In this document: positions 28,407-41,672 of the stretch, piece after piece
Layout of the letters: each line of letters begins with the position of its first letter
Position numbering within the stretch: the stretch's first letter is position 1
From: Escherichia phage BME3
Length of the DNA: 64,000 nucleotides
Reading direction: 5' to 3' (one strand)
Sequence record: PP239276.1
Notes under the pieces: model-generated
What the model was told of the DNA's origin: nothing
The model's database searches: none
Seen by the model: only the letters and a program-made list of their open reading frames with translations
Made by a program: the position numbers and the translations under genes

Positions 28407-28520
28407 AATATCTCCTGATAAGTATTTAGTAGTAGTGGTATGTGCGTTAAGGAGTCGCACCCCTCCATCTCAGAAGGAACTAGGCTTGTTCTTCGAAGAC
28501 ACCGCTGGCACGGAGTTTGG

Positions 28521-28593
28521 TCGTGGTAAACGGAGTCGAACCGTTGTTTCTCGATTATCGGTCGAGTGTACTAACCATCTGTACGATACCACA
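28521..28593 (-). tRNA. tRNA-Ile (anticodon GAU), putative
   Basis: Hand-folded cloverleaf: 7-bp acceptor, D stem GTAC/GTAC, anticodon stem CTCGA/TCGAG, T arm AACGG-TTCGACT-CCGTT; position 33 is C rather than U. Confidence 0.45.
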
Positions 28594-28598
28594 ATAAT

Positions 28599-28690
28599 TG
28601 GCAGCAAGGTGAGGAATCGAACCCCTTGATCTATGGTTTGGAGCCATATTGAGTACCATACTCTTTTAAATCTACCCGGCTATGAGTTCC
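28599..28690 (-). tRNA. tRNA-like element with Trp-type anticodon arm (CCA); ends unresolved
   Basis: Anticodon arm TATGG-CTCCAAA-CCATA, D arm GAGT/ACTC, T loop TTCGATT and encoded CCA, but no clean 7-bp acceptor pairing found. Confidence 0.3.
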
Positions 28691-28739
28691 TTGAAGTGTC
28701 AATGTAACTTAATCATTACACCAGAAGGGAGGTATTTAT

Positions 28740-28818
28740 TGGAGGCGGGAGTAGGATTTGAACCTACGATCTCCAGCATATGAAACTGGCGAGGACGACC
28801 AGACTCCTCTATCCCGCG
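28740..28818 (-). tRNA. tRNA with CAU anticodon (Met/fMet/Ile2), CCA encoded
   Basis: Anticodon loop TTCATAT, T arm GTAGG-TTCAAAT-CCTAC, D stem GAGG/CCTC; position 1:72 is a C-C mismatch, reminiscent of initiator tRNAs. Confidence 0.55.
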
Positions 28819-28833
28819 CAATCTGTAGTAATT

Positions 28834-28909
28834 TGGTTGATAGTAAGAGAATCGAACTCTTCTCGCAATGCCTTATGAAAGCACTCGAAACGCCAGCTTC
28901 ACACTATCA
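28834..28909 (-). tRNA. tRNA with CAU anticodon (second copy; Met or Ile2)
   Basis: Perfect 7-bp acceptor TGATAGT/ACTATCA, T arm AAGAG-TTCGATT-CTCTT, anticodon loop TTCATAA, CCA encoded. Confidence 0.5.
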
Positions 28910-28997
28910 ATGGCTAACCCTTTATAACCCGTCTTGGCGTGGTATCCTTAACAGGACGGTAGATATCCGTTGCAAACCCTATGATATCTCTTAGATA

Positions 28998-39222: not shown

Positions 39223-39627
39223 ATGAAACAACTTATCATTTTACGTGGTGTTTCAGGCGCAGGTAAATCTACAGTAGCAGAAATTATCTCTGAAAATCAT
39301 TGGCCTATTTGTGAGGCAGATCAATACCACTACACTGAAGATGGTGTGTATGAGTGGAAACAAGAGAATATCCATAAAGCACACCAATGGTGTCGTGTCA
39401 AAGTACAAAAATATATGCAGTATGGTGTTGAAAAGATTATTGTCTCTAACACTTCAACCACAGAGAAAGAACTTAAACCTTATTTAACTCTTGCTGAAGA
39501 GTTTGGTTATCAAGTTATCTCTTTAGTAGTTGAAAATAGGCACGGTAACGACTCAATTCATGAGGTTCCACAACATATTCGTGATCAGCAAGAGAAACGT
39601 CTTCGCAGTTCACTTAAACTACAATAA
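39223..39627 (+). CDS. P-loop kinase (polynucleotide 5'-kinase-like)
   Basis: 134-aa ORF with Walker A GVSGAGKST at the N-terminus, T4 Pnk kinase-domain-like. Confidence 0.5.
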   Translation: MKQLIILRGVSGAGKSTVAEIISENHWPICEADQYHYTEDGVYEWKQENIHKAHQWCRVKVQKYMQYGVEKIIVSNTSTTEKELKPYLTLAEEFGYQVISLVVENRHGNDSIHEVPQHIRDQQEKRLRSSLKLQ

Positions 39628-39636
39628 GGAGAGTGT

Positions 39637-39957
39637 ATGGAAATTTATTCTGGTGAAGGTAAGTATTTTACAGTAGTCGATAATGGTGAAATTATTATTT
39701 ATCGCTACGGAAGTGAGTGGAGGAACGAGACAGGAGACGGCTATATCTTATCTTTGCTCCGTTTGATTAATGATCTTACGGAAGAACTTGAAGAAACAAA
39801 ACGTTCATATGATGACCAAGTAGATTCATTAGAAAACATTATTTCAGATCTAAATGAAGAAGTTTGTTATTTGAGTGGACAAGTTTCAGAGTTAACACTG
39901 GAATGTGAAGATTTAGGTGATGTTATTGCAGATTTAAATGAACGTCTTAAGGATTAA
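39637..39957 (+). CDS. hypothetical coiled-coil protein
   Basis: 106-aa ORF with an acidic heptad-like C-terminal half. Confidence 0.35.
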   Translation: MEIYSGEGKYFTVVDNGEIIIYRYGSEWRNETGDGYILSLLRLINDLTEELEETKRSYDDQVDSLENIISDLNEEVCYLSGQVSELTLECEDLGDVIADLNERLKD

Positions 39958-39960
39958 TAT

Positions 39961-40185
39961 ATGAGTACAGCTATCTATGTTAAAGGTGTAAGCGAAGATC
40001 AACAAATGTTATTCTCATTTGGTGAGAATACTGAAATGGAAGATATGTTTAATGATATCCTTGATGCCCTTTCTTCTGAAGGGTTCACAATGATTACATA
40101 CTTTATGGCAACATCTTCTGAATATGTTGATACAGATCTTGAAGACTTGATGGAAGAAATTCAAACTCTTGTGTATAATTGGTAA
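39961..40185 (+). CDS. hypothetical acidic protein
   Basis: 74-aa ORF. Confidence 0.3.
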   Translation: MSTAIYVKGVSEDQQMLFSFGENTEMEDMFNDILDALSSEGFTMITYFMATSSEYVDTDLEDLMEEIQTLVYNW

Positions 40186-40382
40186 GGTTAACTATGACAT
40201 TTATTGAAGAACTAACGAGAATTGCAAACGCGCCTAACAGTAGTGAAGATCCTTACTTTATGGTGGATGATTACACTGGTGGTAATATTGATGATGCCTA
40301 TGAACTAGGCAGACTACACGGTGAAATTGAAATGGCTAAATGGGTTCTTTCGCAACTGGAGGTTAAAGATGAAACAAACTAA
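40179..40382 (+). CDS. hypothetical protein
   Basis: 67-aa ORF. Confidence 0.3.
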   Translation: MVRLTMTFIEELTRIANAPNSSEDPYFMVDDYTGGNIDDAYELGRLHGEIEMAKWVLSQLEVKDETN

Positions 40383-41484
40383 TCCTACATTGTATGGTAA
40401 AACTTCTACAGGTAAAATTAAACAGTGGTCAGTCTATACCGAAGGTAGTGTTGTAACTGTTGCTCATGGTCAATTAGGTGGAAAGATTACTAGCAAATCT
40501 TATACAGCAGAACCTAAAAATATTGGTCGCTCAAATGAAACAACAGCAGAAGAACAAGCTGAAATAGAAGCTCTTGCCAAATGGACAAAGCAACTTAAGA
40601 ATGGGTATTATAAAACAAAAGAGGAAGCTGAAAACCATGTTCCTTCTACACCCATGAAATGTCAGGATTATAAAGATTATGCTGATCGTGTTTTGTTCCC
40701 AGGTTATGCACAATATAAATTGAATGGTCTACGTTCAATGATTAACATGCAAGGTGAATGTTTATCTAAAGCTGGGGAGGTATATAAACTTCCACCTCAC
40801 TGGGAAGAAATTCCAACCTTCATTAAAGAAGTAGTTAGTCATCCTCTTGACGGTGAAGTTTTTGCTGGTTTGGGTGTCCTTAGCCTTCAACAAATTAATA
40901 GTGCGTGGAAAAAGCATAATGCTAACACTCCGCTTCTTAAATACTATGTATATGATGTTCCTGTGCCATCTGTACCATTTGAGAAGAGGGTTGAAGTTTT
41001 GGCTGCTCTAAAAGACGTTGTTGAAGATAAAGGTTTAGATGAACTTATTTGTGTAGTACATACAGAGTACATTGAAAACCAAGAGCAGTTTGATGAATTC
41101 TATGCAAAAGCTCTGCGTGAGAAAGCGGAAGGTGTTGTGTATCGTAATGCACAAGGTGTTTACGAGTTTGATAAACGTTCTTATGATGTTATTAAACGTA
41201 AACCACGGCAGACGCTGGAAGTTAAGGTGGTAAGTGCAAAACGTGATAAAAATGGTGACGGGGTATTGACAGGTGAGATGGAAAATGGTAAAGTAGTCGA
41301 ATTCCTGATGCGTAAGGATTCAGATGAAACCATTAACTATCGTAAAGAAGAAAATGCTTTGACACTTATTGGTCAATTTGTTGAAATAGAGTACGAAGAA
41401 TTTTCAGACGAAGGTATTCCTACCAAGCCTGTTGGGGTACGTGTACGTAAGATGATTCCAGGTACTTGGGAACCAGCAGAGTAA
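40369..41484 (+). CDS. ATP-dependent nucleic-acid ligase (DNA ligase or Rnl5-type RNA ligase)
   Basis: ATG after GGAGG RBS; covalent nucleotidyltransferase motifs KLNGLR, DGEVF, EGVVYRN and VIKRK in canonical order. Confidence 0.55.
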   Translation: MKQTNPTLYGKTSTGKIKQWSVYTEGSVVTVAHGQLGGKITSKSYTAEPKNIGRSNETTAEEQAEIEALAKWTKQLKNGYYKTKEEAENHVPSTPMKCQDYKDYADRVLFPGYAQYKLNGLRSMINMQGECLSKAGEVYKLPPHWEEIPTFIKEVVSHPLDGEVFAGLGVLSLQQINSAWKKHNANTPLLKYYVYDVPVPSVPFEKRVEVLAALKDVVEDKGLDELICVVHTEYIENQEQFDEFYAKALREKAEGVVYRNAQGVYEFDKRSYDVIKRKPRQTLEVKVVSAKRDKNGDGVLTGEMENGKVVEFLMRKDSDETINYRKEENALTLIGQFVEIEYEEFSDEGIPTKPVGVRVRKMIPGTWEPAE

Positions 41485-41672
41485 GAGGTAATATGGTATT
41501 AGTAACAGTTCTTATGATGTTAATTGCTATTGCAATTATAATGTTAGCCTCGTTTCCAGTGGATAAATGGTACTGCAATTTTTGTAGATTTGTTGTTTTC
41601 CTCTGTGCTGGGGCGTATATGGGCGAATCGGTAGTTCGCATTAGTGTTTTGTTAGAACAATATTTTAAATAA
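41466..41672 (+). CDS. small membrane protein with two transmembrane helices (holin-like candidate)
   Basis: 68-aa ORF with hydrophobic segments LVTVLMMLIAIAIIMLASF and FVVFLCAGAYMG. Confidence 0.3.
   Translation: MGTSRVRGNMVLVTVLMMLIAIAIIMLASFPVDKWYCNFCRFVVFLCAGAYMGESVVRISVLLEQYFK

Follow-up and report, generated by a model that had tools for sequence, protein, structure and literature searches.

The DNA analysed here is a stretch of 64,000 nucleotides from Escherichia phage BME3 (PP239276.1), referred to below as the window. Between positions 28500 and 41500 it carries a tRNA gene array, a two-gene NAD+ operon, a divergent non-coding gap, a block of small open reading frames (ORFs), an RNA-repair set and a DNA ligase gene (Table 1). 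A sequence-only reading had regarded this succession as a counter-defence island in which every module plausibly answers tRNA cleavage or NAD+ depletion and the small ORFs are candidate anti-defence proteins. All of these elements were recovered within one stretch at or close to the positions they had been given, including nine small ORFs at 35252–37737, three at 39637–40382 and single ones at 29626–29949 and 31403–31669, all of which are kept as ORFs in relatives. The observation is confirmed; its interpretation is supported in part.

The region is probably an accessory gene region of ‘early type’ arranged around a divergent switch, with the NAD+ operon, termed NARP1, and the tRNAs directed leftward and the small ORFs and a heal-and-seal RNA-repair set directed rightward. 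Transcription of the leftward arm, presumably early in infection, would start with the NARP1 genes, Adps ahead of Namat, and go on through three small ORFs to the ~17 genes of the tRNA array. In the rightward arm nine small ORFs would run unbroken into the repair set; after three small acidic ORFs the replication and recombination genes (DNA ligase, MazG, RdgC, exonucleases) would start.

A megablast search with positions 28500–41500 returned 53 phage records with at least 80% query coverage, the closest of which, Escherichia phages W22, outra, ECGD1 and phi92, are 97–98% identical. On account of this identity the source phage is assigned to the phi92-like myoviruses (Justusliebigvirus, Stephanstirmvirinae), and the gene layout derived from the ORFs is the same as in the published annotations of phi92 and vB_Eco_J-01. 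The components of the region have already been described in close relatives of this phage; the gp112 family discussed below is the one new lead. Three records entered as Campylobacter phages C3, A110a and A150 (MG065656, MG065689, MG065639; 146,366 bp) encode proteins 97–100% identical to those of the present phage and are probably wrongly labelled or assembled from contaminants.

The gap marks a reversal of gene orientation and a change in the sign of the GC skew. A divergent promoter region had been proposed here, and for the leftward direction this is borne out by two consensus sigma-70-type promoters (35120–35092 and 34909–34881); the rightward matches are weak. The strict pattern TTGACA-N16-18-TANNNT occurs at 18 sites in the window versus 4.5 ± 2.1 in shuffled sequences, and six exact sites on the minus strand (29582–35120) stand ahead of tRNA groups, Namat and Adps. 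A general sigma-70 scan gave 59 matches versus 46 ± 6 in shuffles (about two standard deviations), enrichment being clear for the stricter TTGACA pattern only. Several of the six minus-strand sites carry TG upstream of the -10 element. The gap also holds an AT-rich tract (~34900–34960) and a GC-rich hairpin (~35060–35091) and coincides with the minimum of the cumulative GC skew. The corresponding gap of Proteus phage Mydo and Salmonella phage SPLA5a adjoins a gene annotated as a ‘replication initiation protein’, for which there is no homolog here.

Table 1. Features of the region in window coordinates.
Feature	Position	Strand	Remarks
tRNA gene array	28518..31395	-	ARAGORN, Rfam; sigma-70-like promoters interspersed
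gp112-family ORF, 107 aa	29626..29949	-	between tRNA-Thr and tRNA-Gly; GTG start, AAGGAG ribosome-binding site
phi92 gp111-like small ORF, ~50 aa	30617..30769	-	within tRNA array
gp110-like acidic ORF, 88 aa	31403..31669	-	
73-aa ORF	31850..32071	-	two CxxC pairs (zinc-ribbon-like); directly downstream of Namat
Namat (nicotinamide ADP-ribose transferase), 577 aa	32143..33876	-	second NARP1 enzyme; PF04095
Probable Adps (Prs-like ADP-ribose pyrophosphokinase)	33948..34841	-	first NARP1 enzyme; Prs-like domains
Divergent non-coding gap, 410 bp	34842..35251	.	strand-switch point
gp106A-like ORF, 122 aa	35252..35620	+	first of rightward block
Five small ORFs: gp105, gp104, gp103, gp102, gp101	35687..36875	+	gp104: weak DUF1653 match
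gp100	36878..37219	+	cREC (cyclic-phosphate processing receiver) domain protein
gp099-like acidic ORF, 49 aa	37229..37378	+	
gp098	37378..37737	+	T4 Arn.3 / Pfam T4_Y16D family; stop overlaps phosphoesterase start
Calcineurin-type metallophosphoesterase	37737..38288	+	DLH, GDF, GNHD, GHSH motifs
Rnl1-family RNA ligase	38290..39222	+	motifs I, III, IV, V: K92 in KVNG, FEIC150, EGFV222, LKIK237
P-loop kinase, 134 aa	39223..39627	+	stand-alone; GVSGAGKS; weak polynucleotide-kinase PHROG match
Three small acidic ORFs: gp094, gp093, gp092	39637..40382	+	position of Sir2 in Mydo and Seunavirus phages
ATP-dependent DNA ligase	40369..41484	+	replication-type
MazG-like nucleotide pyrophosphohydrolase	41682..42404	+	conserved neighbourhood member; beyond the 28500–41500 region

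The NARP1 operon and the predicted RNA-repair set

The two genes left of the gap had been taken for an NAD+ salvage operon. A two-gene NAD+ operon is present, its genes adjacent and co-oriented at 71-bp spacing with no ORF between them, and its sequence identifies it as NARP1; classical salvage was rejected, as the Nampt-like protein groups with characterised Namat and the pathway is based on ADP-ribose. In a PDB search the 577-residue protein matched SpbetaL1 Namat (9W5X/9W5W) at E=4.7e-118 and human Nampt at 3e-50. The catalytic arginine is retained, LVIRPDSGD (IRPDSGD at 329) aligning with VVIRPDSGD, which contains R306 of SpbetaL1 Namat. The aromatic character of the clamp helix is likewise kept: F392 and Y396 (GSFTYQYN in 9W5X), the residues altered in the F392G/Y396K double mutant made to disrupt the selectivity clamp (Namat structure paper), correspond to Y and F in GSYTYQFN at 460. 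R40 in the variable loop of SpbetaL1 Namat aligns with a lysine.

Namat is 39% identical to the product of gene 80 of Bas63 and Adps 35% identical to that of gene 79; loss of genes 79/80 sensitised Bas63 to SIR2-HerA (Osterman et al. 2024). In the supplementary tables of the same study the phi92 copies are entered as Adps and ‘Adps-associated’ Namat, and AntiDefenseFinder calls NARP1 in Bas60-62, the three Justusliebigvirus phages of the BASEL collection. The Prs-like protein reached 50–99 bits on Prs equivalog models, whose cut-offs are 296–536, which fits a diverged, re-purposed enzyme. No Adps structure matched it in the PDB search, and NCBIfam holds no model specific to Adps or Namat. A stretch of ~58 residues (~343–399) in the window Namat is inserted relative to SpbetaL1 Namat, and Bas63 Namat has an insertion in the same place.

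The two-gene, co-oriented Prs-like and Nampt-like operon is common to the window and to the NARP1 of Bas63 and SpbetaL1; the settings differ, the operon lying beside a tRNA array and facing an RNA-repair block here and among nrd/rII genes in Bas63. In NARP1-AP a gene for the Macro phosphatase Adpp lies between Adps and Namat, which shows that NARP1 operons can take up accessory enzymes from tRNA-splicing chemistry (Osterman et al. 2026 preprint). A Macro homolog is absent from the whole window, and the operon is therefore classed as core NARP1 and not as NARP1-AP. By analogy, Adps would pyrophosphorylate ADP-ribose and Namat would join the product to nicotinamide, and NAD+ split by host SIR2/TIR-type defences would thereby be rebuilt. 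This chemistry, and the standing of NARP1 as an experimentally established counter to NAD+-depleting defence, are taken from the literature.

Across the gap, the RNA-repair cassette is supported in its gene content: phosphoesterase, Rnl1-family ligase and P-loop kinase are present with intact catalytic motifs. The ligase, found in 689 phage records, matches PF09511 at 2.3e-14 and the kinase matches AAA_33 (PF13671) at 1.8e-10. The phosphoesterase scores 21.1 bits on Metallophos_2 (PF12850; E=3.3e-4), under the 27-bit gathering score, and is also supported by PHROG 547 (4.8e-55) and its four metallophosphoesterase motifs. Further upstream, gp100 matches cREC (PF20274) at 1.4e-13 and has REC-like acidic residues (LWLDD, FDND, HTSN). 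We predict that gp100 is a metal-independent cyclic phosphodiesterase of the repair set, that the phosphoesterase heals ends with a 2',3'-cyclic phosphate or 3'-phosphate, and that the kinase acts on 5'-OH ends. The cREC protein and the calcineurin-type phosphoesterase would between them deal with the 2',3'-cyclic phosphate, opening it and taking it off; the kinase would phosphorylate the 5'-OH and the Rnl1-type ligase would rejoin the RNA. The most plausible substrates are tRNAs that anticodon nucleases have cut.

T4 Pnkp and Rnl1 restore tRNA against the PrrC anticodon nuclease, and it is from this pair that we infer a tRNA heal-and-seal function. A 5'-kinase, 3'-end healing and an Rnl1-family ligase (PF09511) in a virulent coliphage are common to both. 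T4 Pnkp is a kinase fused to an HAD-type (DxDxT) 3'-phosphatase, whereas the window has a separate kinase and a binuclear metallophosphoesterase, and an extra cREC protein. The metallophosphoesterase module resembles the phosphatase of Clostridium thermocellum Pnkp.

This neighbourhood has been described from Escherichia phage V5 and from Proteus phage Mydo, where it was predicted to carry out NAD+-utilising RNA repair centred on a sirtuin (Iyer et al. 2022, section 3.7.3); its other genes are a T4-like ligase, cREC, a nucleotide kinase, MazG and, in some cases, a calcineurin-like phosphoesterase. The same enzymes are matched in the window (PF09511, PF20274, PF13671, PF01503 and PF12850), in the order of Mydo. 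The window differs in having no defining sirtuin, the slot between kinase and DNA ligase being filled by gp094, gp093 and gp092, and in having an Arn.3/Y16D-family gene directly upstream of the phosphoesterase. Sir2 queries from Mydo, Bas55 and SPLA5a gave no tblastn match at E<=0.01 in the whole 64-kb window.

The tRNA array and the gp112 family

A large tRNA array is present, as in the sequence-only reading. ARAGORN found 16 genes on the minus strand at 28518–31395 (Ile, Met x3, Leu x2, Phe, Pro, Gln, Gly, Thr, Asn, Tyr, Lys and Ser x2), and 14 Rfam matches exceeded the tRNA gathering score, among them one (30944–31022) that is absent from the ARAGORN set. This minus-strand tRNA-like gene (38.6 bits in Rfam) has a CUUCUAA anticodon loop (read by eye), an atypical D-arm region and a long variable region, and appears to be an atypical Arg(UCU)-like gene. 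Two of the ARAGORN ‘Met’ calls (28834–28909 and 31320–31395) fall short of the Rfam threshold, and a weaker tRNA-like remnant was seen at 28602–28662 on the same strand (22.9 bits).

Codon fractions computed over 41 long window ORFs are 0.43 for ACA, 0.44 for CCA, 0.68 for CAA, 0.29 for TTA, 0.13 for CTA, 0.20 for GGA and 0.20 for TCA; AGA, whose reader would be the Arg-UCU-like gene, stands at 0.30. Codons ending in A are preferred, and the preferred codons are those read by the phage's own U34 tRNAs. The fractions are two- to four-fold above those of E. coli K-12. Because of this preference codon compensation is sufficient to account for the tRNA set. Isoacceptors for Lys(UUU), Tyr, Asn and Thr are reported targets of PrrC, PARIS and retron-type nucleases. 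An anti-nuclease role, as decoys or replacements, has reportedly been proposed for phage tRNAs (van den Berg et al. 2023, eLife). The window resembles such cases in its large array with Lys(UUU), Tyr, Asn and Thr genes and differs in that its anticodons follow the phage's own codon bias; an anti-nuclease role would be compatible with the gene set.

The array also holds a protein-coding gene of the gp112 family, which starts 24 nt past tRNA-Thr and stops just short of the tRNA-Gly promoter. The encoded protein has an isoelectric point of 4.34, and its motif HCSCYGLEGQWEPE (H72-C-S-C-Y-G-L-E-G-Q-W-E-P-E85) is invariant in homologues. A profile search extended the family to 5,068 clusters; the matches listed are about 100–145 amino acids long and carry neither a Pfam domain nor a name. 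Homologues lie within tRNA arrays of the T5-like Proteus phage Stubb, where a cREC gene follows two tRNAs further on, and of the T4-like Shigella phage vB_SdyM_006, and one adjoins a pseudo-tRNA in the jumbo Serratia phage BF.

Neighbourhoods were compared in the 80 best IMG/VR loci and 8 further ones, against one control family (Arn.3, 80 loci); the gp112 loci (L008-L010, L011-L090 and L176-L184) include metagenomic contigs of up to 558 kb. A same-strand tRNA lies within 300 nt at 17/80 gp112 loci versus 1/80 control loci (Fisher's exact p=6e-5), and a tRNA lies within 3 kb at 25/80 versus 1/80 (p=1e-7). Six of the eight further members, picked solely for their long contigs, are flanked by same-strand tRNAs within ~100 nt. 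Elsewhere a gp112-like gene forms part of an operon with overlapping start and stop codons (Adps – orf – gp112-like – Namat, L060) or neighbours a homolog of the P-loop kinase (L050) or of the metallophosphoesterase (L081). Peptide deformylase genes were seen just downstream of the tRNA arrays holding gp112-like genes in L176, L178 and L183, and in L176 a Nampt-like gene lies 3.7 kb upstream.

The association of gp112 with tRNAs is frequent, not universal, and drawn from a small sample; in our view it amounts to a lead rather than a result. A novel reading would make the gp112 family a dedicated tRNA-array companion in a tRNA-repair/NAD+ counter-defence network and, with Arn.3/Y16D, which abuts the repair triad in two distant lineages, an unrecognised component of RNA repair. 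This is a speculative proposal that we hold to be unlikely on present evidence. As such a companion, gp112 might mature, protect or repair phage tRNAs, or neutralise a tRNA-targeting or NAD+-linked effector.

Small ORFs and the replication flank

Two of the ORFs listed as unknown in the sequence-only reading belong to recognisable families, gp100 (cREC) and gp098 (Arn.3/Y16D), and the remainder matches no known anti-defence family. No Pfam, function-bearing PHROG or NCBIfam match was obtained for gp106A, gp105, gp102, gp101, gp099, gp094, gp093, gp092, gp110 or the 73-residue CxxC protein; gp105, gp102, gp101, gp099, gp092 and gp110 were covered by family scans and synteny only. Similarity to a known anti-defence family was not found in Pfam, PHROGs or the PDB. 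The protein gp094 has a beta-rich N-terminal part followed by a coiled coil, and gp093 is extremely acidic (isoelectric point 4.05, a single basic residue). Both gp106A and gp094 are restricted to Stephanstirmvirinae, bar a few marginal matches, and the gp110-like ORF is confined to phi92-like and phAPEC8-like phages among the loci compared. The lysine-rich gp103 is present in all four lineages compared (rV5-, Mydo-, Seunavirus- and phAPEC8-like) and for this reason looks core rather than accessory, and the others are lineage-specific.

The gp098 assignment stems from PF26092, precomputed for an identical gene, and from 44–47% identity to arn.3 of T4-like phages. The family extends to 1,535 phage records and 2,174 clusters at 50% identity, and has a confidently predicted fold with no PDB match. 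Its domain is C-terminal in essentially all members listed, one protein being a fusion to thymidylate kinase, and its invariant residues are R26, AAN, RH49-50, QGF, Q83, R90, Q102, RNG and a C-terminal SEGLY. The distant metagenomic phage of locus L174 likewise has an Arn.3-like gene two genes upstream of ligase, phosphoesterase and kinase. Homology of gp098 to Arn, the McrBC inhibitor, was rejected: a profile search found no relevant match at E<=10 in the PDB, which includes T4 Arn, and the relatives of gp098 are the neighbouring gene arn.3. The label ‘anti-restriction nuclease’ on some records of the family is the name of a neighbour gene.

The second ligase of the sequence-only reading is present but was misassigned. 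It is of the replication type, is kept in every relative compared and heads a block of MazG, RdgC and exonuclease genes, and on this evidence we place it with replication and recombination and not with RNA repair or counter-defence. The window MazG was considered as Atd1 and rejected, since it is not similar to Bas61 Atd1 (E=0.22); an Atd1 homolog is absent from the whole 64-kb window. In the published AntiDefenseFinder output for Bas60-62, NARP1 is the only call in the region and the other call, Atd1, lies elsewhere in the genome, in Bas61 ~65 kb into it. The Atd1 call of Bas61 (EmilieFrey; L179, 6004–7271) is an 83-residue MazG-like ORF beside two truncated genes annotated as ‘tRNA synthetase’.

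Linkage across phages and its interpretation

Orthologues of the repair genes were confirmed by synteny in JeffSchatz (rV5-like), Mydo, SPLA5a (Seunavirus) and WPEC1 (phAPEC8-like). The order tRNA, NARP1, gap, small ORFs, repair set, DNA ligase and MazG is common to Mydo and SPLA5a, which, taken alone, could be explained by inheritance. The triad of phosphoesterase, ligase and kinase extends further, to Aeromonas and Pseudomonas phages. In Pseudomonas phage PAK_P2 (Pakpunavirus, a genus unrelated to phi92; L094, 6496–12855), one strand carries the phosphoesterase and, further on, the ligase, kinase, Adps, a 72-residue ORF, Namat, a small ORF and a Macro-domain protein, the ligase being 37% identical to that of the window. 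Because a rearranged form recurs in PAK_P2, the linkage between NARP1 and repair is not inherited synteny only, and since the order is kept in Mydo and SPLA5a and another arrangement is found in PAK_P2, the clustering is more than chance. The PAK_P2 locus has the appearance of an operon of NARP1-AP type joined directly to the RNA-repair triad.

Several points weigh against our account of the region as an accessory region of early type with NARP1 and a repair set. The phAPEC8-like and rV5-like phages carry the repair set without NARP1, and the NARP1 of Bas63 has nrd genes on one side, rIIA/B on the other and neither tRNA nor repair genes close by; the linkage exists but is facultative. Codon compensation explains the tRNA set at least as well as anti-nuclease supply, and no convincing rightward promoter was found in the gap. 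The RNA ligase has no sequence match in the PDB at E<=0.01, the kinase matches one designed protein only and the phosphoesterase an uncharacterised Aquifex protein only (1.3e-6); the substrates of the three enzymes are inferred, since no close relative is solved or characterised. NARP1 is also the one module that is a validated anti-defence system. Where an island is taken to be two or more recognised systems within ~10 kb, NARP1 is the sole one in this region. The resemblance to the islands described with AntiDefenseFinder (Tesson et al. 2024) lies in a validated system with candidate genes within 10 kb, and the difference in the single recognised system here, the Atd1 of sister phages being tens of kb away. 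The earlier view that each module plausibly counters a defence is supported for NARP1, validated in homologous form, and not for the DNA ligase; for the tRNAs, codon supply accounts for the repertoire with no appeal to defence.

A rival explanation has no island at all: an ordinary host-takeover and metabolism region would be held together by shared early promoters and descent, the tRNAs would serve codon compensation, the phage being AT-rich and its host richer in GC, most of the small ORFs would encode regulators or host-shutoff proteins, and NARP1 alone would be anti-defence. Besides the codon preference for the phage's own U34 tRNAs and the lone AntiDefenseFinder call, the inheritance of the whole order across Vequintavirinae-like and Stephanstirmvirinae phages, the conserved gp103 and the DNA ligase, MazG, RdgC and exonuclease genes that follow directly are as such an explanation would have them. 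However, the RNA-repair enzymes have no housekeeping role in the lytic cycle beyond mending damaged RNA, the NARP1/repair linkage recurs in another gene order in an unrelated genus, and NARP1, Sir2 and the small ORFs come and go among closely related lineages, a behaviour typical of counter-defence genes. We consider this explanation somewhat unlikely. A little less weight is given to the proposal, in line with the sequence-only reading, that several of the small ORFs, especially the first-expressed gp106A, the acidic gp093/gp092 and the tRNA-embedded gp112, directly inhibit host defences as proteins. They are small and acidic (gp093 and gp112 in particular), lineage-restricted or patchy in distribution and neighbours of a validated anti-defence operon, and gp094–gp092 stand in the slot of Sir2; yet they resemble no known anti-defence family in the databases searched, and the conserved residues of gp098 and gp112 look like those of enzyme active or binding sites and not like mimic surfaces. 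Direct inhibition appears doubtful.

NARP1 and the repair set could, finally, be parts of one metabolic circuit, linked by shared intermediates and not by timing alone. NAD+-consuming processing of RNA ends (Sir2/KptA-like removal of 2'-phosphate) would yield nicotinamide and ADP-ribose cyclic or 1''-phosphates, which cREC with the phosphoesterase, or a Macro phosphatase, would convert to ADP-ribose, and Adps/Namat would return this to NAD+. Such a scheme would agree with the predicted action of cREC on RNA cyclic ends and on 1''-2'' cyclic ADP-ribose phosphate (Iyer et al. 2022), with the Poa1p-like Macro phosphatase that NARP1-AP borrows from tRNA-splicing chemistry, with the triad, NARP1 and Macro gene on one strand of PAK_P2 and with the presence of Sir2 alongside NARP1 in Mydo and SPLA5a. 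Against it, all four combinations of Sir2 and NARP1 occur (NARP1 only in phi92-like phages, Sir2 only in rV5-like ones, both in Mydo, neither in phAPEC8-like ones), the window has neither a Sir2 nor a Macro homolog, and the T4-type heal-and-seal route is independent of NAD+. A circuit of this kind is very improbable, and an accessory region of early type around a divergent switch remains our preferred description.

The corrected identities (NARP1, a DNA ligase and a repair set minus its sirtuin) alter the choice of worthwhile experiments. The interest of the region rests mainly on the gp112 and Arn.3 leads, the gp112 family offering a concrete handle on what phage tRNA arrays encode besides tRNAs, and the repair set, given the spread of its ligase, is a practical lead. 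The recurrent linkage of NARP1 with RNA repair in phi92-like phages, Mydo-like phages and PAK_P2 suggests that the two may have triggers or metabolites in common. The region as a whole is a compact and well-conserved case of a broad-host-range coliphage of the therapeutic type stacking metabolic counter-measures which, unlike single-target inhibitors, would rebuild NAD+, mend RNA and supply the phage's own tRNAs.

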